A stretch of DNA of 64,000 nucleotides from Candidatus Omnitrophota bacterium. GTDB taxonomy: Bacteria; Omnitrophota; Gorgyraeia; B26-G9. The stretch spans positions 16,607 through 80,606 of the forward strand of contig JBDRPX010000028.1 of the NCBI GenBank assembly GCA_043826565.1, in the 5' to 3' direction. Shown here piece by piece: positions 29,559 to 61,594 of this stretch (the stretch's first letter is position 1; each line of letters opens with the position of its first letter). Both the position numbers and the translations under genes were made by a program. Under the pieces are notes generated by a model that worked only from the letters and a program-made list of their open reading frames with translations, did no database searches and had not been told where the DNA came from.

Positions 29559-29745
29559 AAATCCTCCTTTCAAGTGTTTATAATTTAGGACAATATATTT
29601 AATTTATTATACTAATTTATCATTTCCGGGGCAAGAAATAACTGGAATATAAAAAAAGTATTTATGGTAAAAGGTTTACTTTTGTGTTAGAATTTTTAAT
29701 GGATTTATAAACTTTAAATTTGTGTCGGATACATGGAGGTTTAAG

Positions 29746-37251: not shown

Positions 37252-37252
37252 T

Positions 37253-37345
37253 ATGAATATTGAATATGGAATATGGAATATGGAAAGTTGGATATAAATA
37301 GTTATATGTTTTTCAATTTTCAATTTTCAATTCTCAACTGTCAAT
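37253..37345. repeat. Two adjacent heptamer arrays, (GAATATG)x4 then (TTTTCAA)x3 plus 3 degenerate units, filling the intergenic region
   Basis: 'tatgaatattgaatatggaatatggaatatggaaagttgg' and 'tttttcaattttcaattttcaattctcaactgtcaattatcaaaattatg' read directly. Confidence 0.75.
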
Positions 37346-37355
37346 TATCAAAATT

Positions 37356-39164: not shown

Positions 39165-39411
39165 TAAAACATTAACATTAAAAATTTAGTATAACAAGGC
39201 AGTTTATATATCGCAAAAACACGTCTTTGAGCTAAGTCTGCTGCGGCATCCTGCCTTGCAGCCGCGCGTTCTTACTATTTTGACATCCTTGTCAAAATCA
39301 CGTTCGAAAGCGCCGCTCAAAGAGAATTTTTGCGCTATCTAGTTAGCTTGTACATGTAAACATATATTCAAAATAGTACATGCATTATATATTAGTATTA
39401 AAATTTTTAAG

Positions 39412-39456
39412 TTTTGAATTTAATTTTTGACTTTTGACCTTTGACTTTTGACTTTA
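39412..39456. repeat. Tandem heptamer array (TTTTGAC-like x5) immediately upstream of the priA start
   Basis: 'tttgaatttaatttttgacttttgacctttgacttttgactttactattatg' contains 4 TTGACT -35-like hexamers in a row. Confidence 0.75.
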
Positions 39457-41474: not shown

Positions 41475-42088
41475 GGATTATCAAAGCCTTCTTCCATGAC
41501 TCCGAAGGCGGCGATGTTTTTAAGGATATTTTCCGCTTCCAGATGATGCGGATTAATTTTTAGCAGCATTTGCGCAATAAGCTTTGCTTTTTGATAATCT
41601 TTATCCTGTAAATAAAGTTGAGCCAGTTCCGCGAGTACTTTGAGATTATTATTATTTATTAAGAGCGCTTCTTCAAGCGAAACCTTAGCCAATGCTCTTT
41701 TTTGCTGCTGAATGAAAAGTGTTGCCAACTTATAAAAAGCTGATATATTATCAGGATTAAGCAGTATGATTTTTTGCAGGACAGTAATTGCCGGATCCGG
41801 ATTATTTTTTAATAGTAAAAAAATAAGTTTAAAATTTAAAGTTAAAATTTTTGTTTGTTTGAAGAGCATATTAAAAATTGATGATTTTGAGGTTTTATTG
41901 CTTTCCCGGATTGCGGTCCAGAGATTGTGGAGGCATTCCGGTGAATCAGGATTTGTTTTAAGTACTTCCTGAAATAGTTCCACAGCATAGGCATAATTAT
42001 TTTTTCGTAAAGCAGAAATGCCTTTTTGATAGAACGGATTGTCCTGGATTGAAAAATTTTCACTATTCATGATATAGTATTGTAGCAA
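41471..42088 (-). CDS. TPR-repeat protein
   Basis: Three or more TPR-like units ('YAYAVELFQEVLKTNPDSPECLHNL', 'AFYKLATLFIQQQKRALAKVSLEEALLINNNN'). Convergent with priA; 4-bp end overlap. Confidence 0.6.
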   Translation of the reverse strand: MLQYYIMNSENFSIQDNPFYQKGISALRKNNYAYAVELFQEVLKTNPDSPECLHNLWTAIRESNKTSKSSIFNMLFKQTKILTLNFKLIFLLLKNNPDPAITVLQKIILLNPDNISAFYKLATLFIQQQKRALAKVSLEEALLINNNNLKVLAELAQLYLQDKDYQKAKLIAQMLLKINPHHLEAENILKNIAAFGVMEEGFDNP

Positions 42089-42115
42089 ATAAAGATGAAA
42101 ATTGAAAGATGAGAG

Positions 42116-43057
42116 ATGAAAATTGTATTTTTCGGATCTTCAGAGTTTGCTGTAGAAAGCCTGAAAAAACTTATCGATAAATATGATGTTGTTGCGGTGT
42201 TTACCCGGCCGGATCGTCCCAAGGGCCGGCATTTGCATTTAAGCAAGACTCCGGTTAAAATATATACCGAGGAGAGGGGGCTTACTCTATTGCAGCCGGA
42301 AGATGCCGGCAGTGCGGAATCTATTCTTCAGCTTAAAAGCTATGCCGCGGATTTATTTGTTGTAGTCAGTTACGGAACGATACTTAGTAAACAGGTTTTG
42401 GAAATTCCAGGGCAGTGCTGTATAAATGTGCATGCGTCATTGCTTCCGCGCTGGAGAGGCGCGGCGCCGATCAACCGGGCGGTTATGAGCCGTGATGAGC
42501 AGACCGGCGTTAGTATTATCCGGATGAATGAAGCCATGGATGCCGGAGATGTTATCTTAACCAAAAGCATAAGTATCGGGGAAGATGATTCGATAGTACT
42601 TTTTGATAAACTTGCTAAACTCGGAGCAGAGGCGCTGATCCAGGCCGTTGATCAGATCATTGCCGGAACAGCACAGTTTATTCCTCAGGATGAAAATGAA
42701 ATAACTATTGCGCATAAGCTTAAGAAAAGCGGCGGGCTTATTGATTGGCAGAATAAAGCTCTGGATATTCATAGCCAAGTCCGCGGACTTTTGCCATGGC
42801 CGTGCGCGTTTGCATATTATAAGGAAAAGTTTTTAAAAATTTTAAAAACAAGTGTTGCGGATAGTAATAAAGGTTTTTCGGCCGGAGAGATTATTGCCGC
42901 TGATCAGAAAGAAGGTATTATTGTCGCCTGCGGAGAAGGGGCGATCCTGATCGAGCAATTGCAGATTGAAGGCAGACGGGCAATGTCCGCGCATGATTTT
43001 TTATTAGGACATAAAATGATTCCCGGAGAAAAACTGGGAGATAAATGGGAAAAATAG
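42116..43057 (+). CDS. fmt: Methionyl-tRNA formyltransferase
   Basis: 'KIVFFGSSEFAVESL', 'INVHASLLPRWRGAAPINRAVM', C-terminal Fmt domain. Confidence 0.9.
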   Translation: MKIVFFGSSEFAVESLKKLIDKYDVVAVFTRPDRPKGRHLHLSKTPVKIYTEERGLTLLQPEDAGSAESILQLKSYAADLFVVVSYGTILSKQVLEIPGQCCINVHASLLPRWRGAAPINRAVMSRDEQTGVSIIRMNEAMDAGDVILTKSISIGEDDSIVLFDKLAKLGAEALIQAVDQIIAGTAQFIPQDENEITIAHKLKKSGGLIDWQNKALDIHSQVRGLLPWPCAFAYYKEKFLKILKTSVADSNKGFSAGEIIAADQKEGIIVACGEGAILIEQLQIEGRRAMSAHDFLLGHKMIPGEKLGDKWEK

Positions 43058-44089: not shown

Positions 44090-44235
44090 TTAATTCAAAA
44101 GTCAAAGGGCAAAAGTCAAAACTACAAGTTAAAATTCAAAATTAAAAAGAAAATAATTTTAAAAAATTTAGTTAACAAAAACTTTTGATTTTTGAATTGA
44201 ATTTTTGAGTTTTGCATTTTAAGTTTTGACTTTAA
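44090..44235. repeat. Long imperfect inverted repeat (about 50-nt arms) built from heptamer units, lying between the two GalT paralogs
   Basis: Left arm 'aaagtcaaagggcaaaagtcaaaactacaagttaaaattcaaaa'. Right arm 'ttttgatttttgaattgaatttttgagttttgcattttaagttttgacttt'. The reverse complement of the right arm aligns with the left arm with a few mismatches; the centre is near 44160. Confidence 0.6.
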
Positions 44236-46391: not shown

Positions 46392-46483
46392 AAACTGAAA
46401 GTTTCCAGTGGCGAGCCTCGCCGTGGGTAGCTTCAAAGAGTTAACCCGGCGGGGACATAGATGTTAATAACTAATATATATAA

Positions 46484-46517
46484 GTGCAGAGAATTGATTT
46501 TTCTCTGCACTTTTTTT
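46484..46517 (+). terminator. Rho-independent terminator downstream of gap
   Basis: Stem GTGCAGAGAA / TTCTCTGCAC (10 bp perfect), 7-nt loop, followed by TTTTTTT. Confidence 0.75.
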
Positions 46518-46729
46518 ATAGTACTTTTTTATAGTACTTCTTTTTCAGCAACAGGTTAATGCTTGTTTTGGTAGGATATATTACTTGACAATAATTACAA
46601 TATATGCTATTTTAAAATTGTTTAAAATAGGGGAGTTGTATACGCTCTCAGGAAAATAAAATCCTGCCTTTTCCAGGGATGGGCGTGTTTATATTTAAAT
46701 GGAGTTAATATCTTTTTAATGATTTAGGA

Positions 46730-47126: not shown

Positions 47127-47987
47127 ATGAGTTACTATAAAATACTGGGGTTTAATAAAGAGCCGTTTTCTACCAGCCCTGATCCATCCTTTTTTTATGA
47201 ATCCCGGGATCATGAACGGGCACTAACTAATCTGATGATTGAATTGCGGTTAAAGCGCGGCCTGTCGGTTATTTTGGGAGATGTCGGTACGGGCAAGACG
47301 ACTCTCAGCCGTAAGCTTTATCAGCTGATCAGATCCCAGGAAGGGTTTAAATGTCATATGATCCTTGATCCTGTCTATAGCGATGAGGAGATTTTTTTGA
47401 CTTCTCTGGTCAGGAATTTTGAGGTGGAACCGAATAATTTCGGGCCGGCAATCCTGAATCTTAAAGAAGCATTGGAAAAATTTCTTTATCAGCAGGGCGT
47501 AGAAAAAGATCAGACGGTTGTTTTGATTATCGATGAAGCGCAAAAACTTAATGAGGTAACCTTGGAAGCTTTGCGCGTACTTCTTAATTACGAAACAAAT
47601 GAATTTAAACTCCTGCAGCTTGTCTTGCTGGGACAAATGGAATTACATTCAAAGATTATTAATATCCCTAATTTTATTGATCGGATCAGCTTCAAATACA
47701 CTCTTAATCCGCTTGATGGTGAAGAGGTGCGTCAGATGATCGAGTTTCGCGTGCGTCAAGCCGGATACCAGTCAAATATACATTTGTTCCTTGACCGGGC
47801 CATAAAAGAAATACATCGTCACACCGGAGGTTATCCCCGCCGGATCAATATGCTTTGTCATAAATTGCTTAAGCAGTTGGTTATGAAAAACCAGTTTGTT
47901 GTGGATGAATCATTGGTCAAAGAAGTGGTTGAAGAAGAAACGCGCCAAGGGCTGCAATGGATAAGGCACCCTTCGGTAGTCGCATAA
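47127..47987 (+). CDS. ExeA/GspA/MshM-like AAA ATPase (secretin/pilus assembly accessory)
   Basis: 'PFSTSPDPSFFYESRDHERAL' N-terminus. Walker A 'GDVGTGKTTL'. Walker B 'VVLIIDEAQ'. Typical of the AAA_22 ExeA family. Confidence 0.75.
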   Translation: MSYYKILGFNKEPFSTSPDPSFFYESRDHERALTNLMIELRLKRGLSVILGDVGTGKTTLSRKLYQLIRSQEGFKCHMILDPVYSDEEIFLTSLVRNFEVEPNNFGPAILNLKEALEKFLYQQGVEKDQTVVLIIDEAQKLNEVTLEALRVLLNYETNEFKLLQLVLLGQMELHSKIINIPNFIDRISFKYTLNPLDGEEVRQMIEFRVRQAGYQSNIHLFLDRAIKEIHRHTGGYPRRINMLCHKLLKQLVMKNQFVVDESLVKEVVEEETRQGLQWIRHPSVVA

Positions 47988-48014
47988 CCTCAAAAGGTTT
48001 ATAAAATAATTAAA

Positions 48015-48692
48015 ATGGTAAATAAAGATCCTTCTCCGGAAAAACGTTTATTAAAAATAATTGAAGGCAAACAGGATGAGTCGGCGATAGCTTCTACTTT
48101 GCGGCAGAGCAAAAAATTTATCGCGCCCAGCAGTTTAAGAGGAAGGATGTCTTTTCTAAAGGAGAAGTTTAAACGGGGGAAAAAGTCTCCCCGCCGTGCC
48201 GAGGCTTTTGATGTAAAGAAATTTAATGTATTTTTGCAATGCTGTGTTGTGCTTCTGGTTATTGCGCTGGGAGTAAATGTAACTATGGAAATTATTAGTA
48301 TAAATAAGGATCAATTAATTCCCGTGCCTAAGTTCGGCGCGAACGCGAACGCGGAACCGGCACAGATAGTTTCTTTGCTGCAGCCGCAGGATTACTATCT
48401 GCAAAAGGTAACTGACCGGGATCTTTTTAAATTTGGAGATATTCCGAAGAAAAAGGTGGATTTTAAAGAGGATACTCAGCCAAAAATCTCTAAATTGCAG
48501 AGCATGGTGCAAGGATTAAAACTGGTGGGGATTTCCTGGGGCGAGGTGCCGGATGCTATTATTGAGAACGGGAATCTTAATAAAACATATTTTGTCAAAA
48601 AAGGATCTGGAGTTGAAGATATGCAGGTAAAAGATATTTTAAAAGATATGGTAATTTTGAGTTTTGAAGGGGAAGTTTTTGAATTGAAATGA
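48015..48692 (+). CDS. Bitopic inner-membrane protein with a C-terminal PilP/GspC-like secretin-interaction domain
   Basis: Single TM (CCVVLLVIALGVNVTMEIISI). C-terminal 'LKLVGISWGEVPDAIIENGNLNKTYFVKKGSGVEDMQVKDI...VILSFEGEVFEL' resembles the PilP/GspC HR beta-sandwich. Confidence 0.5.
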   Translation: MVNKDPSPEKRLLKIIEGKQDESAIASTLRQSKKFIAPSSLRGRMSFLKEKFKRGKKSPRRAEAFDVKKFNVFLQCCVVLLVIALGVNVTMEIISINKDQLIPVPKFGANANAEPAQIVSLLQPQDYYLQKVTDRDLFKFGDIPKKKVDFKEDTQPKISKLQSMVQGLKLVGISWGEVPDAIIENGNLNKTYFVKKGSGVEDMQVKDILKDMVILSFEGEVFELK

Positions 48693-50476
48693 GAAAAAAA
48701 ATAGGGGGACTTATAACGCTGTTACTATTGGGGGCTTGCGCAAGAGTAGCGCAGGCTGAGGAGCTTGCTTCGGCAATATTACCTGTGCCGAGTCAGGTGC
48801 AGGTAACTTCTTTAGCGGAAGGTATCTATGGAAAGATTTCTTTAGACCTGCGGCAAATAGATATTAACGATGCCCTAAAATATTTTTCCTTAAAAAGCGG
48901 ATTAAATATTATTACTTCCAAAATGGTCAGCGGCCGGGTAACCTTGGTTGTTGAGGATGTTCCGGTAAAAGATGTTTTTGATATTATGCTGCGTTCAAAC
49001 GGATTGGCCTATGATAAGACCGGGGATATCTATAATGTAATGACCCAGGAGGAATACAAGACACTTTACGGAAAAAGGTTTTCTGATGTTCGTGTCGTGG
49101 AAGTGTTCCGGTTACAATACGCTCTTCCGGAACAGGCCTTTGCCATGCTTGATACTATTAAAAGTGAAATCGGACGGATATTAGTCGATACTGAATCAGG
49201 TACGGTTTTATGTCTGGATTCGCCGGGAAAAATTGAACAGATGAAAGCGGCTCTCGTGGGATTTGAAAGAGAAACATTGGTCAAAGTTTTTGATCTAAAC
49301 TATGCCAAAGCCGCGGTTGTCGAGGAGCAGTTAAAAAGCCGGCTTGATGAAAAAAAAGTTGGTTCGATCAAAGCGGATGTTCGTTCAAACCGGGTGGTTG
49401 TTCAGGCTTTGCCGGACCGGATGACGGAAATTGAAAAATTAATTAAAGCTTTGGATACTAAAACAAGAGAGGTTTTAATTGACGCTAAGGTTTTAAAGGT
49501 TAAAGTCGGCGATGAACTTAATGTTGGGGTAAGATGGGAAGGGCTTGCTGAGGTGGTCGGAGGTGATGATGGGCTGACTTATTTGGGGTCGTCTCCCTTT
49601 AGCGCTGTTCAGGCAACAACCGATGCCTGGCGTTCGCGAAAACAAGTTTATCAGGATGTCGGCTATGCCGGGTCCTATGCTAGTAGCGGAACAACTTCCA
49701 ATTATTCATCGGCAGCTTCGGCACTGGGTATAAATAATTTGCATTATGGGGTTATCGGATCAAGCGATATCGATGCTGTCCTAACTTATTTAAAAACAGA
49801 AAATAATGCTAAGATACTTTCTAATCCTAAAATTGCGGTAACGAATAATCAGGAAGCGCGTATCCATGTGGGAGAACGTCAGGCTTATGTTACGACTACG
49901 ACGACCAGCGGACAGTCAACCAGTACTATTTCCGAAGATGTAAATTTTATTGATATCGGAATTCAGATGCATGTTATCCCGACGATCAGTGAGAACGGGT
50001 TTGTCAATTTACAGATCAAAACGGAAATCAGCAGTGTGGTGGACGTATTAATTACTCCCACGGAAAACCGGATCCCGATCGTGGATACCTCACTTGCCGA
50101 AACAACTGTTTTGATCAAGGAAGGCAAGACTGTTATTATCGGAGGTTTACGCCGCGAAGAAGTATCCCAGACAGTTAGGCGGGTTCCGATCTTGAGTAAA
50201 ATCCCGATATTGGGTTTCTTGTTTAAGGAAAAATCAGAAAATAAATATACTACGGAATTGCTGATCATGATTACGCCGATTGTAATCACCGGAGATGTAT
50301 TAGTCTTGGAAGAAGGCAAGAAGATCGGGGTTCCGGAGATAAAAGAAGCTCAGGAATATAAAGAGCTTGAAAGAAGGAAAAAAGAAATTGAAACTTATCA
50401 GCCGGTACCAAGTGATTTAGGGGGCATGAATTTTAAAAAGTTCAAAGTATATGAGGGGATACGGGATAAGGACTAA
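48689..50476 (+). CDS. Secretin (type II secretion/type IV pilus PilQ/MshL-like outer-membrane channel), copy A
   Basis: Signal peptide. N-terminal N0/N1-like repeats. C-terminal secretin domain 'ILSNPKIAVTNNQEARIHVGERQAYVTTTT...TVLIKEGKTVIIGGL...VPILSKIPILGFLFK'. ATGA overlap with the upstream gene. Confidence 0.85.
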   Translation: MRKKIGGLITLLLLGACARVAQAEELASAILPVPSQVQVTSLAEGIYGKISLDLRQIDINDALKYFSLKSGLNIITSKMVSGRVTLVVEDVPVKDVFDIMLRSNGLAYDKTGDIYNVMTQEEYKTLYGKRFSDVRVVEVFRLQYALPEQAFAMLDTIKSEIGRILVDTESGTVLCLDSPGKIEQMKAALVGFERETLVKVFDLNYAKAAVVEEQLKSRLDEKKVGSIKADVRSNRVVVQALPDRMTEIEKLIKALDTKTREVLIDAKVLKVKVGDELNVGVRWEGLAEVVGGDDGLTYLGSSPFSAVQATTDAWRSRKQVYQDVGYAGSYASSGTTSNYSSAASALGINNLHYGVIGSSDIDAVLTYLKTENNAKILSNPKIAVTNNQEARIHVGERQAYVTTTTTSGQSTSTISEDVNFIDIGIQMHVIPTISENGFVNLQIKTEISSVVDVLITPTENRIPIVDTSLAETTVLIKEGKTVIIGGLRREEVSQTVRRVPILSKIPILGFLFKEKSENKYTTELLIMITPIVITGDVLVLEEGKKIGVPEIKEAQEYKELERRKKEIETYQPVPSDLGGMNFKKFKVYEGIRDKD

Positions 50477-50480
50477 AATT

Positions 50481-52874
50481 ATGAGAAAAAATAAAAGTAT
50501 TTATCGAGCAAGTTTACCTGCCGGGGGAATGCTGATCATTACCGCATTACTTATGGTTTTTGCGGTTAATGGATATGGTCAATCCGCGCCGGAAAAACCG
50601 CAGGCACAGGTATCTTCTATTGTCGCGACAATAGAACAGAATATGTCGGCTTTGGCCAAAGAATTAGATGATAACAAAAAAGCTTATGAACAGCTCAAGG
50701 AAGAGTATGATAAAAAACAGCAGGATTTAAGTTTTAGCCAGGATGAGGTAAAGGAATTAGAGAAGAATTTTGAAGAGCTAAAACAGGATTTTAAACAGAA
50801 ATCGCAGGCATTATTAGAAAAAAAGGCTGATGAGGTCGGAGCATACAAGGCGCAGATAGACAAATTGCAAAATGAAATAGACGAGAGAGGAAAAACAATT
50901 GTCCGGAAAAAGGAAGAGATCATATCTTTAGAAACCCAGCTGAAAGAAGAAAAGAGAATACTAGAGGACAAAGAAAAATCGTTAAAAGCAAAAGATTTAG
51001 AGATCAATGATCTGCAAAAACAATTAAGCGACTTTGACCGGCTGCTTAAAGAAGCACATAATTCCATTAATGACCTCAGGCAGGAGGATACCAAAAAAGA
51101 TAATCTGGTTGAATCTTTTCGCGCGGAAATGCATAAAAAACAAAAAGAATTTGATGATAATATGCAAAATGAACGAGGCCAGTTCCAAAAGAGGCTTTTT
51201 GATGAGGAGCAGAAAGAAGAGAAATTAAGAAGACAAAATGCCGACCAATTAAAGGAGTATACTAAACAGCTTCAGGATAAAGATGATTTAATGTCCGCGC
51301 AGAAAGAGATGCTGGTTAAAAAAGACAAGCTTATTAATGATCTTAATATTAGTTTGGATAAGCAAAAACTGGATAATGAAAATATTCGTAAACAGAATAA
51401 TATTCTGGCCGAAGAAAAGAAACAGCTGCTGCTTAATATTTCTGTTTTTGAAGAGGAGATCGGTAAGCAGGGGTCTTTATTGAAGAATGGCAAACAGAAT
51501 TTGACTGTCGCGCAAAAGGAACAAGAGTATCTTCAGAAGGAGCAGCAGGATCTTAAAAAGAGATATGAAGAATTACACAATGAAAAAGAGGTTTATTTGA
51601 GCAAAAGTCAGTATCTTGAAAAACAGGTAGAAGAAAGAGATAAAAAATTGCAGGCATTGCGGGATGATATCCAGAAACAGGTAACTTTGCTGCATCAGCA
51701 GCTTGGCGGGGTGGTTCAGCAGACTCAGGACCCGCAGAATAAACAAGCATTGAAAGATAAACGGGATGAGCTTGAACAGATAAATCTTTCCTCTAAGCAG
51801 CAGGAGCGGGAATTACGCAAACAAATAGATGATCTTAAATCAGAAAAGCAGGATCTTTTTAATCAGAGTAATAATCTGATCCAGGAAAAACTTCAGATTC
51901 TGGCCAGGATGGTCCAGCTGGAAGCGCAGCAAAAGGCTTCCGGAGCTTCGGATGGAGCTGTCGGTATGTCTGAGGAAGAAATTGCCTATGTAAAACATGA
52001 ATTAGAGAATCTTAATAAATCATTAGATAAAAAAGCAAGTGAACTGGGTAAAGTCCAGGAAGAAAATTATAAGCTGTTTAAAGAAAAAGAGGAGCTGCGA
52101 AAACTTGTTAATGATTGCAATGATCAGATAACTTCTCAAAAGAAGCAGCTTAATGACCTGCAGGAAATGATGCGGAATAATGAGAATGAAAGCCAGTTGA
52201 AAGTTCGCGATATGAGAAAAGACCTTGATGGTCAAAGGGCTGAGTTCCAGAGAGTTTCTAAAGAATTGGAGAAAAAGAATGCTTTATATGATAAGGATAT
52301 AAAGAAATACTTAGCCCGCTGTGAAGATTTCCGGGGTAAATTAGCGGCTTCCCAGGAGAAATATGATACGATGAAAGCTGATTACGATATTTATGTAAAA
52401 CGTATCAAAGAAGTATACTCAGAGCAGCGCAAATTAGAAGGAAGGGTCCAAGAGCAGATTAAACTTCTTAATACATACTCAAAAACTATTGACGAGCTGA
52501 GCGCGGACAACAAGTCTATGGAAACGGAAAATGAGCGGCTGGGGTTGTTGTTAAAGACAATTCCGCAGAAATTAAATACTTTGGAAAGTGATGTCGCCCA
52601 ATTACGCAAACAAAATTCTACTTTACATTATAACTTAGGGGTTTTTCATACGCAGCGCCAGGAATATCCGCAGGCAATCGCGGAATTTAAACAGTCTTTA
52701 AAATATAATCCCAATGACGCGAGTACCCATTATAATATGGGCGTTATTTATTCGCAGTATTTAGTTGATGAATCCAGTGCGGTTATGCATTTTAGGCATT
52801 ATCTGTCGCTTGATCCTAATGATAAAGATTCTCAGCGGGCAAAAGAATATATTTTGCTCTGGGGAAGTAAATAA
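50481..52874 (+). CDS. Membrane-anchored long coiled-coil protein with a C-terminal TPR domain (MshN/PilF-like partner candidate), copy A
   Basis: N-terminal TM/signal anchor. About 650 aa of K/E/Q-rich heptad coiled coil. C-terminal 'LHYNLGVFHTQRQEYPQAIAEFKQSLKYNPNDASTHYNMGVIY' TPR units. Confidence 0.6.
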   Translation: MRKNKSIYRASLPAGGMLIITALLMVFAVNGYGQSAPEKPQAQVSSIVATIEQNMSALAKELDDNKKAYEQLKEEYDKKQQDLSFSQDEVKELEKNFEELKQDFKQKSQALLEKKADEVGAYKAQIDKLQNEIDERGKTIVRKKEEIISLETQLKEEKRILEDKEKSLKAKDLEINDLQKQLSDFDRLLKEAHNSINDLRQEDTKKDNLVESFRAEMHKKQKEFDDNMQNERGQFQKRLFDEEQKEEKLRRQNADQLKEYTKQLQDKDDLMSAQKEMLVKKDKLINDLNISLDKQKLDNENIRKQNNILAEEKKQLLLNISVFEEEIGKQGSLLKNGKQNLTVAQKEQEYLQKEQQDLKKRYEELHNEKEVYLSKSQYLEKQVEERDKKLQALRDDIQKQVTLLHQQLGGVVQQTQDPQNKQALKDKRDELEQINLSSKQQERELRKQIDDLKSEKQDLFNQSNNLIQEKLQILARMVQLEAQQKASGASDGAVGMSEEEIAYVKHELENLNKSLDKKASELGKVQEENYKLFKEKEELRKLVNDCNDQITSQKKQLNDLQEMMRNNENESQLKVRDMRKDLDGQRAEFQRVSKELEKKNALYDKDIKKYLARCEDFRGKLAASQEKYDTMKADYDIYVKRIKEVYSEQRKLEGRVQEQIKLLNTYSKTIDELSADNKSMETENERLGLLLKTIPQKLNTLESDVAQLRKQNSTLHYNLGVFHTQRQEYPQAIAEFKQSLKYNPNDASTHYNMGVIYSQYLVDESSAVMHFRHYLSLDPNDKDSQRAKEYILLWGSK

Positions 52875-52887
52875 AAACAGAATACAG

Positions 52888-54711
52888 ATGACAGAATACA
52901 GAAAACAGAAATTAAATATCCTGATAATATATTTTGCTCTGGCTTTATGCGGCAGTGTGTGCCGGGCAGATGAGAATAAAGAATATGCCGCTTTGCCAGT
53001 ACCCGCGGCTAATGGAATGATCTCAAATTTGGCGATAACGAAAGAGCGGATATCTTTGGAGTTGCGGGATATAGATATTAAAGACGCGCTTAAATATTTA
53101 GCATCCAAGGCCGAGATTAACATTGTTCCGACAAATCAGGTTTCCGGACGCATAACCTTAATGATTAAAGATGCGCCGATTGATGATGTTTTTGAAATGG
53201 TTATCCGTTCCAACGGGCTGGCGTATGATAAGATTGGAAGTATTTACAATGTTATGACGGAAACAGAATACAAGGAACGCTATGGACAGGCGTTTGATGA
53301 CCGCAGGCATCTTGAGGTCTTTCATCTTAAATATGTAATACCGGAACAGGCGTATTCAATAATTGATTCTATCAAAAGCACAATCGGAAAAGTTTTAATA
53401 GAGAACGATTCCGGGACGATTTTAGTTTTGGATACCCCGGAGAAATTAGAAGAAATAAGAAAGACCATTAAATCCTTAGAGCGCAAAGGTACTGTACGGA
53501 TGTTTGATTTAAAGTATGCCAACGCAGAAGATGTCGCAAAACAGCTTAAGTCACAGCTGGATAAGAAAAAAGTAGGGTCTATCCGGGCGGATCAGCGTAC
53601 GAATCAGGTGATTGTGCAGACTTTACCGGAACGTATGGACAATATTGCCAAATTGATCGAAGGCTTAGATCAAAAGACAAAAGAAGTTTTGATCCAGGCC
53701 CGGATCATCCAGATAAAACTTACGGATAATCTTAGTGAAGGCGTGGAATGGGAAGGATTGTTTGAGCTCTCAAAAGGCAGTAACAGCACGACGTATCTGG
53801 GCAGTACCCCGGTCGCGGCTGTGGGCAGTCCGGTGGATACTTGGCGCTCAAGACAGCAGGTGCTTGCCGATACCGGATATGTCGGGTCATATCCGTTTAG
53901 CGGAACATCCACGGATTATGCCAGCGGGCAGAGCAGTGTCGGGACCGAACAAATGCATGTCGGAGTTGTCGGCGAGAGTGATTATGATGTATTGATAAAA
54001 TATTTAAAAACATTAGGGCATGTGCAGATATTATCTAATCCAAAACTGGCGGTAACGAATAATCAGCAGGCACGTGTGCATGTCGGCGAGCGGCAGGCAT
54101 ATATAACTACGGTTACTACGGCCGGACAGACGACAACCACAGTTTCTGAAGAAGTTACTTTTCTTGACGTGGGTTTGCAGTTGTTTATTACTCCGACGAT
54201 TAACGATCAGGGATATGTAACATTAAATATTAAACCGGAGATAAGCAGTGTGGTGGGTACATTGTTAACCGCGCAGAATAACAAGATTCCGATCATTGAT
54301 ACTTCCACAGCGGAAACTACGGTCATGGTCAAGGATGGAGCAACAGTTGTAGTCGGAGGATTGCGCAGAGAGGAAGAGACATCTAGTTCCCGGCGCATGC
54401 CGATACTGGGAAGTATCCCTTTTTTGGGGAATTTATTTAAGACTGAAGATCGAGGAAAATCACGTAATGAATTATTAATCATGGTTACCGCGCATATTAT
54501 CGAAGGGGATGAGTTGATCACCGGCGATGACCGTGATTTTGGAAGTAAATCACATGAAAAATATCAGGAATATAATTTAATGACTAACGAATCGGATTTA
54601 ACAGAGTATGAGAAAGAACAGAAAAAAACATTAGAGCAGAAGATGTACCAGGAATATCCGGAATATAAGGAAGATAAAGAATTTTACCCCGACTTAAAAC
54701 CATTAAAATAA
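52888..54711 (+). CDS. Secretin, copy B (paralog of 48689..50476)
   Basis: Start ATG 52888 with signal peptide (MTEYRKQKLNILIIYFALALCGSVCRA). Collinear with copy A at about 50% identity ('ILSNPKLAVTNNQQARVHVGERQAYITTVTT', 'VVVGGLRREEE', 'MPILGSIPFLGNLFK'). Confidence 0.85.
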   Translation: MTEYRKQKLNILIIYFALALCGSVCRADENKEYAALPVPAANGMISNLAITKERISLELRDIDIKDALKYLASKAEINIVPTNQVSGRITLMIKDAPIDDVFEMVIRSNGLAYDKIGSIYNVMTETEYKERYGQAFDDRRHLEVFHLKYVIPEQAYSIIDSIKSTIGKVLIENDSGTILVLDTPEKLEEIRKTIKSLERKGTVRMFDLKYANAEDVAKQLKSQLDKKKVGSIRADQRTNQVIVQTLPERMDNIAKLIEGLDQKTKEVLIQARIIQIKLTDNLSEGVEWEGLFELSKGSNSTTYLGSTPVAAVGSPVDTWRSRQQVLADTGYVGSYPFSGTSTDYASGQSSVGTEQMHVGVVGESDYDVLIKYLKTLGHVQILSNPKLAVTNNQQARVHVGERQAYITTVTTAGQTTTTVSEEVTFLDVGLQLFITPTINDQGYVTLNIKPEISSVVGTLLTAQNNKIPIIDTSTAETTVMVKDGATVVVGGLRREEETSSSRRMPILGSIPFLGNLFKTEDRGKSRNELLIMVTAHIIEGDELITGDDRDFGSKSHEKYQEYNLMTNESDLTEYEKEQKKTLEQKMYQEYPEYKEDKEFYPDLKPLK

Positions 54712-54714
54712 AAG

Positions 54715-55695
54715 GTGGCTAAAGTGAGACTACTAATAATTACAATTGTTGTAAGTTGTATCATGGCGATGCCCGGAAATGTATTCAGTCAAGCAGCGGA
54801 TGATCATGTGAAGATAAAGGCGGAGTATGAAAAGCTGCGTAAGGAAAATGAAGACATCTCCAATGACCGGGATAATTTACGGGCTCAGATGAAAGTGCTT
54901 TTGCAATATAAAAGTGAGATCGTCAAGGCTCAGGAGATGGTAAATCAGACGAAGATGGAGCGCAATCAGTGGGAAACCCAGAAAAAACTGCTGCAGAATG
55001 AGAATCAAAATCTGCAAGATAGGATGAATCTGCTTAAAGCGCAGATAGATGACCATGAATCTGAACGGCTGCAGTTTGAGGCAGAAAGAGATAATATGAG
55101 AAAGTCTTTGTCTAAATCCAAAGCTGGATATATAATAGTAGACGATCTCAAAAGAAAAAACAGTGAAGAAAAAAGGAATAATAGCCTATTGCAAAAACAG
55201 ATTGCCGGCTTAGAGAAAAGAGTAAAAACGCTTACTGAAGAATCAGGAAAAATGGAGACAATTGAGGAGGTATTGCGCAGCCAGTTAAAGGAGCTTAAAG
55301 ATAAATACGCCCAGGCGCAGAAGAAAAACAAATCTTTTGAGAAAAAACTAGAACAGCAGCCGAAGCGGTACGCGGAAGTTGCCCGGGAGAATAAAGTTTT
55401 ATTAAAGCGCACGGCGTTGATGCATTATAACCTAGGGGTCTTTTACACAAAGGGGAAAGAGTATCCCCGGGCGATTGCGGAATTCGAAAAAGCTGTAGAA
55501 CTTAACCCTGAAGATACTTACGCTTATTTTAATTTAGGGTATATTTACGCGGAACACTATGTGGATAGGCCCAAAGCAATTGATAATTTCCGAAAATATC
55601 TGAGTTTGGCGAAAAAGGAGGATAAAGATGTGGACTGGGTAAAGAGGTATATTCTTACCTGGGAGACTTGGGAAGGTAAAGAGATAACTAAATAA
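54715..55695 (+). CDS. Coiled-coil protein with a C-terminal TPR domain, copy B (shorter paralog of 50481..52874)
   Basis: Signal/TM. Coiled coil. C-terminal 'LMHYNLGVFYTKGKEYPRAIAEFEKAVELNPEDTYAYFNLGYIY' aligns with the copy A C-terminus. The start is uncertain (GTG 54715 or 54724). Confidence 0.6.
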   Translation: MAKVRLLIITIVVSCIMAMPGNVFSQAADDHVKIKAEYEKLRKENEDISNDRDNLRAQMKVLLQYKSEIVKAQEMVNQTKMERNQWETQKKLLQNENQNLQDRMNLLKAQIDDHESERLQFEAERDNMRKSLSKSKAGYIIVDDLKRKNSEEKRNNSLLQKQIAGLEKRVKTLTEESGKMETIEEVLRSQLKELKDKYAQAQKKNKSFEKKLEQQPKRYAEVARENKVLLKRTALMHYNLGVFYTKGKEYPRAIAEFEKAVELNPEDTYAYFNLGYIYAEHYVDRPKAIDNFRKYLSLAKKEDKDVDWVKRYILTWETWEGKEITK

Positions 55696-55734
55696 AAACT
55701 AATTAAGTCGGGGAAAAGAGGAAGGGAGGAAGCA

Positions 55735-56322
55735 GTGAAAAAAACAATTACTTACGGTCTGATAATAATGTGTGTTTTCGTGTTTTCCGCAGTAGACAGC
55801 GGATATGCTTTTTTGGGTAAAAAGAAAACCGAGGAAGCGGAAAGCAAAACGGTAAAAAAGGCAGAAAAAACAGAGGTTCAGGAAATTCAAAAAACTGAGT
55901 CCAAGGTTGAAGAAAAAGCAGTTGAGAAAAAAGATGAAAAAGTCCAGGATAAAGAACGCGCTTTGAAAAAGAAGAAAAAAGCTCAATTGGATAATACAAT
56001 GTGGGATATAACCCTTATCCGTATGTCCGGCGAGGGTAAAAAGAAGTCTGATGTTTTGGTTTTTGAAGAAAACCGTTTTTATTCGCAAGCGTATATGGAT
56101 CAGGGATTTAGCGCAACAAATTATACGTTGAATGTAAAAGAGGAAGAGGCTGTGGTTTGGGAAACAATGCAGACTTCTGCCGGAGAAAAAGTTATTTTCT
56201 GGAGAGGGGAAATTGATCCTAAGTTAAATGATATGCGCGGGGTATTAAGTGTTCAGGTCAGTCCGGGCAAATCAGAAGATTTCTCATTTATTAGTAATGG
56301 TAAGAAGCCTTTTAAAAAATAA
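55735..56322 (+). CDS. Secreted Lys/Glu-rich hypothetical protein
   Basis: GTG start after GGAAGGGAGGAAG. Signal peptide. Charged K/E-rich segment, then a globular C-terminal part. Confidence 0.5.
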   Translation: MKKTITYGLIIMCVFVFSAVDSGYAFLGKKKTEEAESKTVKKAEKTEVQEIQKTESKVEEKAVEKKDEKVQDKERALKKKKKAQLDNTMWDITLIRMSGEGKKKSDVLVFEENRFYSQAYMDQGFSATNYTLNVKEEEAVVWETMQTSAGEKVIFWRGEIDPKLNDMRGVLSVQVSPGKSEDFSFISNGKKPFKK

Positions 56323-56363
56323 CTATAGTTTAAACAGTTTGATCGCAGCAAAAAGAATGCCGA

Positions 56364-57467
56364 ATGCTGAAAATATCCGATATTTTAAAAAAAGCCAAAG
56401 TACGCAAAAATAAAGAGGGGGGGGGGCCTTCTCCCAAACCTGCTGTTCCTGAATCGTCCAAAGCACCGGAATCTAAAAAGGCAGAGATAGCCAGGAGGGT
56501 GAAAAAACATCCTCCGGAAGATACTTTGCCCAAGAAGTCTTCAGGAAAAGAAAAAGCGGTGCCGGTCTTACCGATAGACAGTGATGAAGCCATCGGAAAA
56601 TATGAAACGGCAATAGCATTACTAAAAGATATCATGGAACCTCTGGCGGAAAAAAGAGATGATTTAATAGATGCCGCGGATAATCTGATCGAAAATATTA
56701 TTGAATTGCTTAAAAAAGATGATTCAGCTTTGATGGGGCTTTTTTTTCGGGATTATGAGGTATTAAAGGAGTATGTTTATCAACATTCGATTAATGTATG
56801 TGTTCTGGCCTTAAGGATCGGTTTGAATTTAGAATGTGATTTTGGTCATCTTAAAAAACTGGGGATGGCTGCGCTGCTTCATGATTTGGGCCAGTTAAAG
56901 TTTGAATCACTTGTAAATAAACCGCGGAAGCTTGAACAGAGTGAATATGAAAAAATAAAAAGTCATCCTGCCGTAGGCAGGGATATCTTAAAAAAGTTTG
57001 CGAGAAAATTGGATCTCAAGATTTTAGATGTTATATATCAAGAGCATGAACGGATCAACGGCACCGGATATCCGCAGGGGTTAAGCAAAGATATGATTGC
57101 CGATGACGCTAAACTGATCGGGATGGTTGATGTTTATGAAGCTTTAGTTCATTCCCGCCCGCATCGGTCAAAATTCGGCGGGCATGAAGCTATCCAGATG
57201 ATCATAAAAGAAAAAAGTAGTTTTGAATATAATTTAATAAAGGTTTTAATCGATACCATTGGTTTGTTTCCTCTGGGAACACTGGTCGAGTTAAATACAA
57301 AGGAAATAGGTATCGTCGTCAATCAAAATCCCAAAATGCCATTGAAGCCGATTATTGATATAACTCATAATATCAATAAACAAAAGTTATCGAAACCTAA
57401 GCGCGTCGATTTATCAAAGAATTACGCTATTTATATAAAACAGTGCTTTGATGAGCTTCAGGATTAA
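56364..57467 (+). CDS. HD-GYP-like domain protein (stand-alone, no receiver), with a G10 tract near its 5' end
   Basis: 'LLHDLGQLKF', 'HERINGTGYPQGL' (GYP motif), 'HSRPHRSKFGGHEAIQMI'. N-terminal Lys/Pro-rich low-complexity region. Confidence 0.65.
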   Translation: MLKISDILKKAKVRKNKEGGGPSPKPAVPESSKAPESKKAEIARRVKKHPPEDTLPKKSSGKEKAVPVLPIDSDEAIGKYETAIALLKDIMEPLAEKRDDLIDAADNLIENIIELLKKDDSALMGLFFRDYEVLKEYVYQHSINVCVLALRIGLNLECDFGHLKKLGMAALLHDLGQLKFESLVNKPRKLEQSEYEKIKSHPAVGRDILKKFARKLDLKILDVIYQEHERINGTGYPQGLSKDMIADDAKLIGMVDVYEALVHSRPHRSKFGGHEAIQMIIKEKSSFEYNLIKVLIDTIGLFPLGTLVELNTKEIGIVVNQNPKMPLKPIIDITHNINKQKLSKPKRVDLSKNYAIYIKQCFDELQD

Positions 57468-57470
57468 AAT

Positions 57471-59165
57471 ATGCAAAAATCCCATAAAATCATAACTATT
57501 TTATTTTGCTCTCTACTTGTAGCCAGCGGGTATCTTTTACTGCGGTTTATGATCACAGTCAATTATGTGGGCGAACTCAAAGACAATTATACTGTTTTAT
57601 CGGGAGAAAAAAATGTCCTGAAAAAACAGCTTGAGGCAGAAAAAGAGATTAACGTCGTGCGGGTGAAGAAATTAGAAAATGAGATTGCCGGCTTAAGTAA
57701 TGTTAAAAATATTCAGGATAATCTTGCTCTGACCCAGGAGAAACTTTCCAGTGTTGATAAAGACTTCAAACAAATTAGTCAGGAAAAAAAGCAATTAGAA
57801 CAAACAACCCTGAATTTAAATAACCGCATTAGTAATCTGACCAAGGAATTCACCAAGACTTTAGATCAATTGAAAGCCGTGAGGGAGGAATTGGTAAAAG
57901 CGCAGAGCGGAAGTGCTATGCGAAAGTATGAGAAAGAAATTGAAGGATTAAATGCGCAGCTTGAGCAAAAGGCCGAGCAGATCGTAAAACTGAATAATGA
58001 AATCAAAAAAATAAATGATGAAGTGGTAAATCTGAAGAAAGACGGCACAGAAGCTCACGGTCAAAACAAGGTTTTGGAAAATCAAATTACCCGGCTGGAG
58101 AAAAAAAAGCAAGAACTCCAGTTGAGATACACCAATCTTGAGGAAAGGATGTCCAAGAAGAAAGACCCTACCCTCGGATTAGGAGAGAAGCTGAACAAGC
58201 TTAAGGCGGAACTTTCCGAGAAAGAGAAACAGTTAGCAGAATTAGAAAAGAAAAATTCCCAGGAAGTCGAATATCTGAAAAAAAATCTGGAAATGGCCAG
58301 AGCGGAAAAAGAAACTCTGCAGGCAAATCTTAATAGAGCCGAAGACCGGCTCCGGGAAAAAGATAAATTTGCAGATGAGCTTGAAGAGAAGCTTAAGCGT
58401 TTTGATAAACAGCTTACCCAGCGGGAAGATGAAAGAGATGCTTTAGAAAAAGAAATTGCTCAGCTGAGAAAGACAAAAGTTGAAGTGACCGGAACTCTGC
58501 CGAGAGAAATGGTGCAGTACCAGGAAGAAGGAGCCTTAGATGCCCATGATATGGGTACGATGCAGGAAAAACTGAATAAGGTGTATGCTCTTTATGATAC
58601 CGCTAAGGCGCAAGTAGTTAAGTTCTCGGAACTTCTTATGCAAAAAGAATTGGAGATAGAGAAATCAAAGCAAAGAATTGTTGGTTTAGAGCAGGAGTTA
58701 AGTATGATTAAGGGCGGCGCGGCTTTCTCGGGAACCGGAGAAACTTCCGGTCAGATCGCGGATCTTGTCCAGGTCAAAGCTAAACTTGAGACGCAGTTAC
58801 AATACGAAAAGCAAAAGTATGAAGATATGAATTCTCTATATATTAATTTAAAGAGCCAGGTGGTCCAGGTTACGACACTTCTGACGCGGCGCGAATCCGA
58901 ATTAGATGATAAGAATGAAGAAATCGCAAACTTAAAAAGGGAAATGTTAAGGGTCCAGCAGGAGTATTCCATGGCCCAGCGGGAACTTAAAGATGTTGCA
59001 GAACGTCAGAAGAGAACCTTAGAGGATCTCTCGCGGTCGACGCGCCTGAATTCGACTTTGCAGGAAAACCTTTCATATCGTACAATAACAGCCGAAGATA
59101 GCAAAAAAAGCCATGAAGAAGCGGAGAGATTAAAAAAGGAAATTGAAGTCTTATTAGGTAAATAA
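57471..59165 (+). CDS. Membrane-anchored long coiled-coil protein
   Basis: N-terminal TM (IITILFCSLLVASGYLLLRFMITV), then about 500 aa of heptad-repeat K/E/Q/L-rich sequence. Confidence 0.55.
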   Translation: MQKSHKIITILFCSLLVASGYLLLRFMITVNYVGELKDNYTVLSGEKNVLKKQLEAEKEINVVRVKKLENEIAGLSNVKNIQDNLALTQEKLSSVDKDFKQISQEKKQLEQTTLNLNNRISNLTKEFTKTLDQLKAVREELVKAQSGSAMRKYEKEIEGLNAQLEQKAEQIVKLNNEIKKINDEVVNLKKDGTEAHGQNKVLENQITRLEKKKQELQLRYTNLEERMSKKKDPTLGLGEKLNKLKAELSEKEKQLAELEKKNSQEVEYLKKNLEMARAEKETLQANLNRAEDRLREKDKFADELEEKLKRFDKQLTQREDERDALEKEIAQLRKTKVEVTGTLPREMVQYQEEGALDAHDMGTMQEKLNKVYALYDTAKAQVVKFSELLMQKELEIEKSKQRIVGLEQELSMIKGGAAFSGTGETSGQIADLVQVKAKLETQLQYEKQKYEDMNSLYINLKSQVVQVTTLLTRRESELDDKNEEIANLKREMLRVQQEYSMAQRELKDVAERQKRTLEDLSRSTRLNSTLQENLSYRTITAEDSKKSHEEAERLKKEIEVLLGK

Positions 59166-59239
59166 ATAATGATTACATCGATTGAATACAGATTACACAG
59201 ATTAAATATAAGTTTATCGAATAGAGTTATGGTGATGGA

Positions 59240-60139
59240 ATGATCAGGAAAGTTAAGAAATATATTACTGTTACGATGATGGTATCTATCCTTTCTGCGG
59301 GGGGAATTTGTCCGGCACAAGATTTTAAAATGGAAGCTGACGCGCATTACCAAAAGGGGTTGATTTTATATCATCAAGGCAAATATGATCAAGCCCAGGA
59401 AGAATTTAGCCAAGCCAAAGAATTGCTTAAAAAAAACGAAGCCGAAAAGCCGGCTGTTTTAGAAAAAAAAACAGAAGTGATTAAAAAACAGACGAAAGTG
59501 ATCGAACTTAAGGCAGAAGATAAAAAAGAAGATACTGTGCCTAAAAAGAAACCGGTTATTGAATATACTATCGGAGCGGGTGATGAGCTGGTTGTTTCGG
59601 TATGGGAAAACGCGGATCTTGATAGAGAAACGATTGTGCGTCCGGATGGTAAGATATCTTTTGCGCTTATTGGAGATATGAAAGCTGCCGGGCTTACGAT
59701 TGAACAGTTTAAGAATAATTTAACCGAAGCTCTTCAAGAATATATCCGTTATCCTCAGGTATCTGTTTACATAAAAAAAATGGGTGGGGAAAAAGTCATT
59801 GTTTTAGGAGAAGTGCATGACCCGGGAGTGTATGAGGTTACCGGCCGCAGGACGATTTTAGAAGCTATCGGCATGGCCGGGGGATTTACCAAAGAAGCGG
59901 TGCTGAAAAGTGTGATTTTGGTCAAAGGCGGTGTGGATCAGCCTGTGCCCAAAAAGCTTAATCTTACCCGGGCTTTGTATAAAGGTGAAAGTATTGAGAA
60001 TGTCGTTCTTGAATCTGAAGATATCGTTTATGTGCCGAGTAAGGTTATTTCCGACGTAAGCTATTTCCTTAAAACAATTCTTGATCCGATCACATCCAGT
60101 ATTTATATAAATAAAGAAGTTCGTACTTGGGGAGAGTAA
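59240..60139 (+). CDS. Polysaccharide export protein (Wza/Poly_export plus SLBB domains)
   Basis: Signal peptide. 'YTIGAGDELVVSVWENADLDRETIVRPDGKISFALIGDMKAAGLTIEQFKNNLTEAL' is the Poly_export/PES motif. A second SLBB-like 'YVPS' segment. Confidence 0.75.
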   Translation: MIRKVKKYITVTMMVSILSAGGICPAQDFKMEADAHYQKGLILYHQGKYDQAQEEFSQAKELLKKNEAEKPAVLEKKTEVIKKQTKVIELKAEDKKEDTVPKKKPVIEYTIGAGDELVVSVWENADLDRETIVRPDGKISFALIGDMKAAGLTIEQFKNNLTEALQEYIRYPQVSVYIKKMGGEKVIVLGEVHDPGVYEVTGRRTILEAIGMAGGFTKEAVLKSVILVKGGVDQPVPKKLNLTRALYKGESIENVVLESEDIVYVPSKVISDVSYFLKTILDPITSSIYINKEVRTWGE

Positions 60140-60142
60140 TAA

Positions 60143-61446
60143 TGGAAGATGTGAAGTTAGTAACTAAAAATATTAAATCATTTGCTTCAAATAAAGAAAT
60201 TGAATCTGTATTTCGTCCGATGAAATTAATTCACCATGCCCTTATGAAAAAGCAGTGTCCGGGCAATGACTACTTAGGCTGGCTGGATTTGCCTTCTAAA
60301 TTACCGGCAGCGCTGATCAAGGATATCGAGCAAACCGCAAAAAAGATAAGAAAACAGGCCGATGCTTTTGTCTGCCTGGGGATTGGCGGGTCATATCTGG
60401 GAGCTAAAGCGGCTATAGAATTTTTAAAACCGACATTTGCTAATGAACTGAATACGGAAAAACCGAAGATTTATTTTGCCGGACATAATTTAAGTGCGGA
60501 TTATCTCGCGGATCTATTTAGCGTATTAAAGAACAAAAAGATCGTGGTTAATGTAATATCAAAATCAGGCACAACTACTGAGACTGCGGTAGTATTCAGG
60601 ATCATTAAGCAGTATATGGAAAAGCTCTATGGTAAAAAGAAATTAAAAGACAGGATTATTTGCACGACGGACCAATCAAAGGGAGCTTTACTTAAATTAG
60701 CCAAGGATGAAGGATTTAAAACTTTTGTGATTCCGGATGATGTGGGCGGCAGGTTTTCTGTGCTTACTCCGGTGGGGCTTTTACCGATTGCTGTAGCCGG
60801 GATCAATATTCGCGAGCTTTTAAAAGGTGCGGCTGATTTTGAAAAAAAATGCAATAGTTTAACCTTGCGCAATAATCCGGCATATCAATACGCGGCGATA
60901 AGACATATTCTTTATAAAAAAGGAAAAGTTATTGAGATATTATCATCTTTCCATCCAGCGCTTCATTATATCTCGGAATGGTGGAAACAGCTTTTTGGCG
61001 AAAGTGAAGGCAAGGATAATAAGGGGGTTTTTCCGGCATCATGTGATTTTACTACAGATCTGCATTCTTTAGGGCAGATAATTCAGGAAGGACAACGTAA
61101 TATATTTGAAACATTTATGGTCATAAATAAAACTTCGGCAAAATGCAGTATTCCCAAAGACAAAGAAAATCTGGACGGTTTAAACTATTTGGCGGGTAAG
61201 GATATTGAATTTGTCAATCGTAAGGCTTATGAGGCCACTGCCAGTGCGCATTATGACGGAGAAGTGCCGAATATGACCATTGAAATACCTTCACGTAATG
61301 CCTATTCTCTGGGGCAATTATTTTATTTATTCGAAAAGGCGATCGCGATGTCCGGATTACTTAGCGGCGTGAATCCGTTTAACCAGCCGGGCGTAGAAGC
61401 TTATAAAAAGAAAATGTTTAAGCTGCTGGGCAAACCGGGAACATAA
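60143..61446 (+). CDS. pgi: Glucose-6-phosphate isomerase
   Basis: RBS GGGGAGAG then ATG 60143. 'CLGIGGSYLGAKAAIEF', 'VISKSGTTTETAV', 'FGESEGKDNKG', 'VNPFNQPGVEAYK' are PGI family motifs. Confidence 0.85.
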
Positions 61447-61561: not shown

Positions 61562-61594
61562 AAAGTCACAAGTCTCAAGTTACAAGTCGCAAGA
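61562..61594. repeat. Tandem heptamer array (AAGTCNC-like x4); a second TCAA-unit array lies at 61631-61658
   Basis: 'aaagtcacaagtctcaagttacaagtcgcaag' and 'ttctcaattttcaatactcaatattcag' read directly. Confidence 0.7.

Follow-up and report, generated by a model that had tools for sequence, protein, structure and literature searches.

The window analysed here is a stretch of 64,000 nucleotides (nt) from a Candidatus Omnitrophota bacterium (contig JBDRPX010000028.1), and the element in question is a homopolymer of ten guanines (G10) that lies inside the 5' end of a gene encoding an HD-GYP-domain protein. The initial annotation of this DNA located the tract at 56417-56426, which is borne out by the sequence, and proposed that it could act as a slipped-strand switch for phase variation. 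The analysis presented below leaves this proposal credible but unproven. The gene and its parts are as follows:

56364..57467, + strand: gene for the HD-GYP-domain protein, 367 amino acids (aa), identified by Pfam HD_5, PDB matches, and Foldseek; in frame (ON) at G10
56364..56393, + strand: N-terminal motif MLKISDILKK, codons 1-10, conserved and predicted to form a short helix; contains an A7 run at 56387-56393
56394..56582, + strand: disordered, non-conserved linker rich in Lys, Pro, and Glu, residues 11-73, defined by alignment and model confidence; G10 is at its start
56417..56426, + strand: G10 homopolymer, made of the last base of GAG and of GGG GGG GGG, which codes for Gly19-Gly21
56769..57227, + strand: HD-GYP catalytic domain, residues 136-288, with H173-D174, E227-H228-E229, G235-Y236-P237, and D256

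The HD-GYP gene and its G10 tract

The product of the gene matches, at 100% identity, P0001, which is annotated as an "HD domain-containing phosphohydrolase" and comes from a metagenome-assembled genome (MAG) of Candidatus Omnitrophota. Pfam HD_5 matches residues 136-288 with E=2.8e-22 and 79.7 bits (cut-off 27.2), and Pfam HD is also above its gathering threshold (56.9 bits, cut-off 22). The top sequence matches in the PDB are 5z7c (V-cGAP3, which is specific for cyclic GMP-AMP (cGAMP) and is the best match) and 4mcw (PmGH). An AlphaFold2 model with a predicted local distance difference test (pLDDT) score of 79.7 and a predicted template-modelling (pTM) score of 0.77 was compared with known structures using Foldseek, and the top 13 matches, which include 9rbz, 4mcw, 4r8z, and 3tm8, are all HD-GYP structures with a probability of 1.0. 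The protein is therefore a bona fide HD-GYP-domain protein, in agreement with the HD-GYP-like identity that the initial annotation had given it, and its predicted role is that of a cyclic-dinucleotide phosphodiesterase (PDE) that would hydrolyse cyclic di-GMP (c-di-GMP) or cGAMP.

The comparisons with other genes described here are based on orthologue sets of 64 distinct loci for the counts of homopolymer runs, 39 strictly aligned genes, 31 more distant orthologues, and 32 orthologues in the alignment of motifs. In the last set, H173-D174 and G235-Y236-P237 are invariant, and in an alignment with PmGH they fall on its HD and GYP. In place of the EHHER of PmGH, the family has QEHER, in which Glu stands for the first His of the HHE motif; in the light of the metal ligands of PmGH, this Glu presumably replaces one metal-ligand His. 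Residue 232 is N in the window protein and D in many orthologues and in PmGH. The protein shares the HD_5 domain, the H-D dyad, the G-Y-P, and the fold with the solved HD-GYP proteins (PmGH 4mcw, PA4781 4r8z, DvhD 9rbz, V-cGAP3 5z7c, and Bd1817 3tm8), but it differs from them in lacking any sensor domain, such as REC or PAS, and in having the QEHER sequence and a distinctive domain order, in which the N-terminal decapeptide leads into a disordered segment and then into helices, which precede the HD-GYP domain, and a small beta domain forms the C-terminus.

The position of the tract relative to the start codon is given by the N-terminal motif. Among the 32 orthologues, M1, S5, D6, and I7 never vary, and conservation is at least 90% for L2, I4, L8, K9, and K10; in the model, residues 4-15 form a helix. 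This strong conservation of MLKISDILKK argues that the ATG at 56364 is the true start and lies upstream of the tract, and therefore that the tract is intragenic, 53 nt into the open reading frame (ORF). The linker that follows the motif has a pLDDT below 50 across residues 12-64, and its length among orthologues varies from 36 to 86 residues.

The sequence of the tract and its surroundings is AAAGA GGGGGGGGGG CCTTCT, which is read as GAG GGG GGG GGG CCT, i.e., as E18 G19 G20 G21 P22. The E-G-G-G-P reading of the initial annotation holds, although it strictly occupies codons 18-22 rather than codons 18-21. The G10 tract is the only run of G or C of at least 8 in the 64 kb window, as had been claimed, and the second-longest is a G7 at 15795-15801; C runs of at least 6, poly-A or poly-T of at least 10 anywhere in the window, and tetra- or penta-nucleotide arrays in its 5' coding regions were all absent. 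In a window with a G+C content of 39.1%, a first-order Markov model gives 0.07 expected G runs of at least 10. The same model gives 14.4 expected G runs of at least 6 where 9 are observed, and this over-prediction of the shorter runs suggests that G runs are generally avoided in the window. GGG makes up 24% of the Gly codons in the window, and of the five Gly-Gly-Gly tripeptides in its ORFs, only that of the tract is GGGGGGGGG; the chance that E-G-G-G is encoded as G10 is P ~0.004. The tract is, in short, unusual for the window.

A change in the length of the tract by one G has the early effect on the reading frame that the initial annotation foresaw. The computed product of a G9 allele ends at a stop after 41 aa and that of a G11 allele at a stop after 29 aa, and G7 and G13 keep the frame. 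The tract is thus placed as a toggle would be, downstream of the true start and at a point where one G more or less leads to a truncated protein. Two candidates for an internal restart exist, GTG46, with an AGGAGG at zero spacing, and ATG91, without a Shine-Dalgarno (SD) sequence. Re-initiation after a frameshift is unlikely at either, since the SD-like sequence abuts the start at GTG46 and there is none at ATG91. As regards its length, G10 is above the cut-off of G/C >=7 used to define the Campylobacter phasome, and in C. jejuni NCTC 11168 every tract of at least 8 varies (PMC6321876).

Long G and C runs in orthologous loci

The occurrence of long runs of G or C was compared between the 5' region of the orthologous genes, taken as the 340 nt from -780 to -440 relative to the QEHER codons, and the flanking DNA, taken as the remaining 742 kb of the loci. 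Four runs of at least 8 are present in the 5' region of the 64 loci, at differing sites:

Window: G10 at +54
L072 (Ga0315287_10064734): G9 at -15 to -7, just 5' of the start GTG-LKISDILKK and over the likely ribosome-binding site (RBS), in the interval L072 193-215
L011 (JAZDHG010000073.1, SRR13662870): C8 in the linker, nt 176-183 (L011 10176-10183; also in L109-L111)
L067 (P0004, ERZ23498475): C8 in the linker, nt 192-199 (L067 5192-5199)

The C8 runs of L011 and L067 encode Pro-Pro as CCC CCC plus a flanking C, again in the disordered linker. At the C8 site of L011, its close relatives have the interrupted sequences CCCCCTCC or CCCCCTTCC. In the lineage of L072 (proteins P0030 and P0121-P0125), the G9 is read through by gene callers as "AAGGGGV", and two cluster members, of 334 aa, begin at an internal GTG 18 codons past the N-terminal motif; these could be partial genes at contig edges or alleles disrupted at the 5' end. 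P0011 also has Gly-Gly-Gly at the position equivalent to that of G10, but its codons are GGA GGC GGA, and the other linkers with GGG or PPP tripeptides, found in seven loci (six distinct proteins), all use mixed codons.

No run of 7 occurs in the 5' region of the 64 loci, and the flanking DNA contains eleven runs of 7 and five of at least 8. Since a Markov model expects 13.3 runs of at least 8 in the flanking DNA, such runs are depleted there and the model over-predicts them 2.7-fold. The density of long runs in the 5' region is 27-fold above that of the flanking DNA. If the rate observed in the flanking DNA is used as an empirical null, 0.146 runs of at least 8 are expected in the 5' region and the probability of three or more with the window excluded is 5e-4; the uncalibrated Markov model gives 0.42 expected and a corresponding probability of 0.009 with the composition of the locus, and 0.77 and 0.043 with the composition of the region.

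A different null, in which the amino acids are fixed and the codons vary synonymously, gives 0.16 expected linkers with a run of at least 8 among the 39 strictly aligned genes, compared to 3 observed; with the window excluded (38 linkers), 0.10 are expected compared to 2 observed (P=0.005). For runs of at least 6, the expectation is 2.5 linkers and the observation 3, and all three of these have runs of at least 8. Apart from these three linker runs, the 39 genes contain no G/C run of at least 6, and so none of length 6 or 7. In the 31 more distant orthologues, C6 occurs twice, once in the 5' part of a gene (L078, ORF nt 132). As judged from these sequences, the recurrence of long runs at the 5' end has the pattern expected of selection for mutable tracts. 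Simple drift would not easily produce it, given that a run prone to frameshifts ought to be no less harmful at the 5' end than in other places.

Two further observations were made on the runs in these loci. Three of the five flanking runs of at least 8 are intergenic (L004 20038-20045, L005 9992-10000, and L010 14562-14569); they begin no more than ~90 nt past the stop of, respectively, an anti-sigma factor gene, the gene for phosphoglucose isomerase (PGI), and a 726-aa ORF, with the next gene downstream of each. In addition, the HD-GYP orthologues commonly have A8-A9 runs at nt 24-41, which arise from Lys codons.

The envelope operon and the rest of the window

The gene with the G10 tract is the eighth of an operon, and its location in a duplicated secretin/coiled-coil envelope cluster, as described in the initial annotation, is supported by Pfam and NCBIfam:

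46482-46512: strong terminator upstream of the operon block
46585-46613: promoter-like site upstream of the operon block
47127..61446, + strand: conserved envelope operon of eleven co-oriented, tightly spaced genes (Pfam and NCBIfam)
Genes 1-3: AAA_22 ATPase; hypothetical protein; PilQ/GspD-like secretin (secretin 1)
Genes 4-6: 807-aa coiled-coil/TPR protein; secretin 2; 326-aa coiled-coil/TPR protein
Genes 7-8: 195-aa hypothetical protein; HD-GYP protein (the G10 gene)
Genes 9-11: 564-aa coiled-coil protein; Wza-like polysaccharide exporter; PGI
57465..57473, + strand: TAA stop that ends the HD-GYP gene and, after a gap of 3 nt, the ATG of the 564-aa coiled-coil gene

The junction between the HD-GYP gene and the coiled-coil gene suggests translational coupling, and because the stop is only 3 nt before the next ATG, a frameshift in the HD-GYP gene may be polar on the genes downstream. 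The same gene order is found in ~25 Omnitrophota loci from diverse environments (loci L002-L036 and L066). By this conservation of gene order, the duplicated-secretin cluster is a phylum-wide core operon of which the HD-GYP gene is a core member. A search for descriptions of the eleven-gene block found none in the searchable literature, and a search on Omnitrophota together with secretin returned nothing relevant. No mismatch-repair genes (mutS or mutL) are present within the window.

Other repeats in the window are period-7 tandem arrays of 4-8 copies (with units such as TTTTCAA, TTTTGAC, TCAAAAG, and AATATGG), which are intergenic and just upstream of several gene starts; that at 44095-44225 consists of a TCAAAAG array followed by an inverted TTTTGAN array. 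The arrays are at the following positions:

37250-37351
39406-39455
42087-42121
44095-44225
52874-52911
61563-61593

The window also encodes two tandem paralogous response regulators with REC and HD-GYP domains (RpfG-like; 29722-30798 and 30939-31988), so that the genome has several HD-GYP proteins besides that of the G10 gene. Two giant ORFs are present at 2262-9758 (2,498 aa) and 11788-16008 (1,406 aa), and between them are genes for a PD40 beta-propeller protein and a FlgD_ig protein. In the larger ORF, the first 1,000 residues were scanned and were found to contain FlgD_ig, Big, PKD-like Ig domains, and CHU_C; all of these products are probable large surface proteins. Finally, an AbiEii-type nucleotidyltransferase toxin gene (27739-28566), of the type IV toxin-antitoxin/abortive infection family, adjoins an unannotated ORF of 209 aa.

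Slippage as a possible switch and other explanations of the tract

The interpretation that we prefer, tentatively and with some doubt, is that G10 is a classical simple sequence repeat (SSR) that acts as a slipped-strand translational switch, which would make the HD-GYP gene a candidate phase-variable locus. G10, the assembled state, would be ON and would yield the 367-aa enzyme. Replication slippage that adds or removes one G would turn the gene OFF, leaving a peptide of 29 or 41 aa and no usable internal restart, and a second slip would turn it ON again. Changes of 3 nt would add or remove one Gly in the linker, and they should be tolerated because the length of this linker varies so widely. 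In the OFF state, the putative PDE would be lost and, because the gene is in a tightly packed operon, expression of the downstream coiled-coil protein, the Wza-like exporter, and PGI would probably be lowered as well. Cells would then differ in the level of a second messenger and in an envelope or secretin-associated phenotype. The slippage rate typical of phase variation, its reversibility, the downstream polarity, the substrate, and the selective benefit are what we infer from the sequence. A wider proposal, that several Omnitrophota lineages independently evolved 5' homopolymers of G or C (G10, G9, C8, and C8, in the linker or over the RBS) as ON/OFF switches of cyclic-dinucleotide signalling, would account for the recurrence of such runs, and we consider it rather unlikely.

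Nearly as likely as a switch is an incidental homopolymer. According to this explanation, Gly-Gly-Gly arose by drift in a fast-evolving, low-complexity linker, its codons became a G run through synonymous substitutions or tolerated in-frame slippage of 3 nt, and any variants in length are purged as null alleles of a needed core gene; the tract would have no evolved regulatory role and would decay. Chance alone could supply such a run, given that the Markov expectation for the window corresponds to ~1 G10 per Mb, or a few per genome, and that the linker is constrained neither in sequence nor in length and is, among orthologues, also rich in A8-A9 runs from Lys codons. The HD-GYP gene, moreover, is core and syntenic across the phylum, unlike typical contingency genes, which are accessory, and 60 of the 64 orthologous loci are without any G/C run of at least 8 in the 5' region. 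The observations that weigh against a switch, and that an incidental origin would explain, extend to the length of the tract itself. The protein cluster has a single member, its closest homologue being 53-54% identical, and tract-length variants were not found in the databases searched. A scan of metagenome contigs with a flank-anchored pattern allowing for variable tract length, AAGTACGCAAAAATAAAGA-N{4,20}-CCTTCTCCCAAACCTGCTG, gave 0 matches. No truncated or restarted allele is present among 639 homologues, where restart products of 322, 313, 302, or 277 aa would have headed the list, and no OFF allele, with the N-terminal motif and QEHER in different frames, is present in ~70 orthologous loci. 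The two assemblies, the MAG and a Logan contig, both have G10.

The comparative evidence is also subject to reservations. The initial annotation had suggested comparing the tract in related genomes and had regarded orthologues lacking a homopolymer at this position as evidence against a switch; indeed, none of the ~64-70 orthologues has one at the equivalent position, whereas three have G9 or C8 elsewhere in the 5' region. The lack of a homopolymer at the same site is, however, weak evidence against a switch because the relatives are distant. The enrichment test is post hoc, in that two hits were already known when its region and design were chosen, and among the orthologues fetched after the hypothesis had been formed, the sole new hit was the G9 of L072, which is upstream of the start and outside the linker. 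The C8 of L011 is one T-to-C substitution from the CCCCCTCC of its relatives and is identical in three assemblies, although that comparison is biased, since the look-up can return nothing but identical proteins. The "AAGGGGV" encoded by the G run is common to four database members of the L072 lineage. What an incidental origin does not readily explain is the excess of long runs in linkers when the amino acids are fixed, with all three runs that reach 6 also reaching 8, and the concentration of such runs at the 5' end despite the selection expected there against frameshift-prone sequences.

The reliability of the tract has also to be considered, since the run or its exact length could be an artefact of assembly or sequencing. 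In the two-colour chemistry of NovaSeq instruments, a missing signal is called as G; the resulting poly-G artefacts sit at the ends of reads, where the true sequence is not resumed. Run SRR26275510 is an Illumina NovaSeq DNA metagenome of deep groundwater from borehole SA2074A of the Äspö Hard Rock Laboratory, and MEGAHIT was the assembler used in that study (PMC11484514). Logan contig L001, which derives from this run, matches 7,637 nt of the window without difference, G10 included; the two assemblies probably drew on common reads and so are not independent at the level of the reads. Nevertheless, an artefact is improbable: both flanks are continuous homologous coding sequence, the length of the tract holds the conserved N-terminal motif and the HD-GYP domain in one frame, and two assemblers (MEGAHIT and that of Logan) agree, with the Logan contig unbroken through the tract. 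The public raw reads comprise SRR26275510 and 56 sister metagenomes. A nearby break between Logan contigs, where the end of L112 and the start of L001 overlap by 29 nt and the break falls inside the A7 run of the N-terminal motif (codons 8-10, Leu-Lys-Lys), was examined as a possible sign of heterogeneity in G10 and was rejected as such, since it is in the A7 and not within k-1 of G10; it may reflect low coverage or heterogeneity of the A run and is not explained by G10.

A role of the tract at the level of RNA or translation, whether in programmed ribosomal frameshifting, transcriptional slippage, mRNA structure, or a G-quadruplex, has the least to recommend it and is very improbable. Early elongation could in principle be affected by structure in this part of the coding region. 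Recoding would be needless, as the conserved N-terminus and the catalytic domain already share frame zero at G10; furthermore, slippage-type recoding typically occurs on runs of A or T, and a lone G run cannot form an intramolecular quadruplex. An RNA-structure role was rejected because the folding of 56340-56480 is less stable than that of shuffled sequences (z=+1.74).

If the tract does act as a slipped-strand switch, it can be compared with known G-tract phase-variable ORFs. It resembles them in being an uninterrupted tract of at least 8 G in the 5' part of an ORF of a moderately AT-rich genome, where one G more or less cuts the product short, the consensus is in frame, and three homologues in other lineages have tracts of their own at other sites. 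It differs from them in that the organism is an uncultured Omnitrophota bacterium of deep groundwater rather than a host-adapted pathogen, the target is a signalling gene that is core and syntenic and not an accessory gene for surface modification, and there is a single tract in 64 kb. To our knowledge, nearly all documented phase variation is from host-associated pathogens and commensals, and a literature search returned no publication on phase variation in Omnitrophota. A precedent for a homopolymer in a conserved master-signalling gene is the poly-C tract of bvgS in Bordetella, which encodes a sensor kinase and in which reversible frameshift variants are documented; in both cases, the homopolymer frameshift would affect a signalling gene and not one for a surface structure, and the protein families are different.

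PDEs that act on c-di-GMP are themselves known to be phase variable, as in the case of pdcB and pdcC of C. difficile, which have invertible promoters, and of the PDE of the sfa operon of E. coli, which is under epigenetic control; a 2025 review of such cases lists no SSR-driven PDE (PMC9286219, PMC11868660). What these systems would have in common with the present one is the stochastic ON/OFF switching of a cyclic-dinucleotide PDE, with effects on many surface and motility phenotypes. They differ from it in that their enzymes are characterised c-di-GMP PDEs controlled upstream of the gene by inversion or by epigenetics of the Dam type, whereas here the candidate switch is a homopolymer in the coding region of an HD-GYP protein.

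The significance of the finding depends on which interpretation is correct. If the tract is fixed, it is a coding quirk in a disordered linker. If it switches, bet-hedging by localised hypermutation would reach into a deep-groundwater phylum that is suspected of a host-dependent lifestyle. It would also place under the control of a simple repeat a second-messenger enzyme whose conserved operon encodes two secretins and a polysaccharide exporter as well. Were the wider proposal of switches in several lineages true, an uncultured, ultra-small phylum of the deep subsurface would have its first described contingency locus, and an SSR-driven switch would be known for the first time on a cyclic-dinucleotide PDE.

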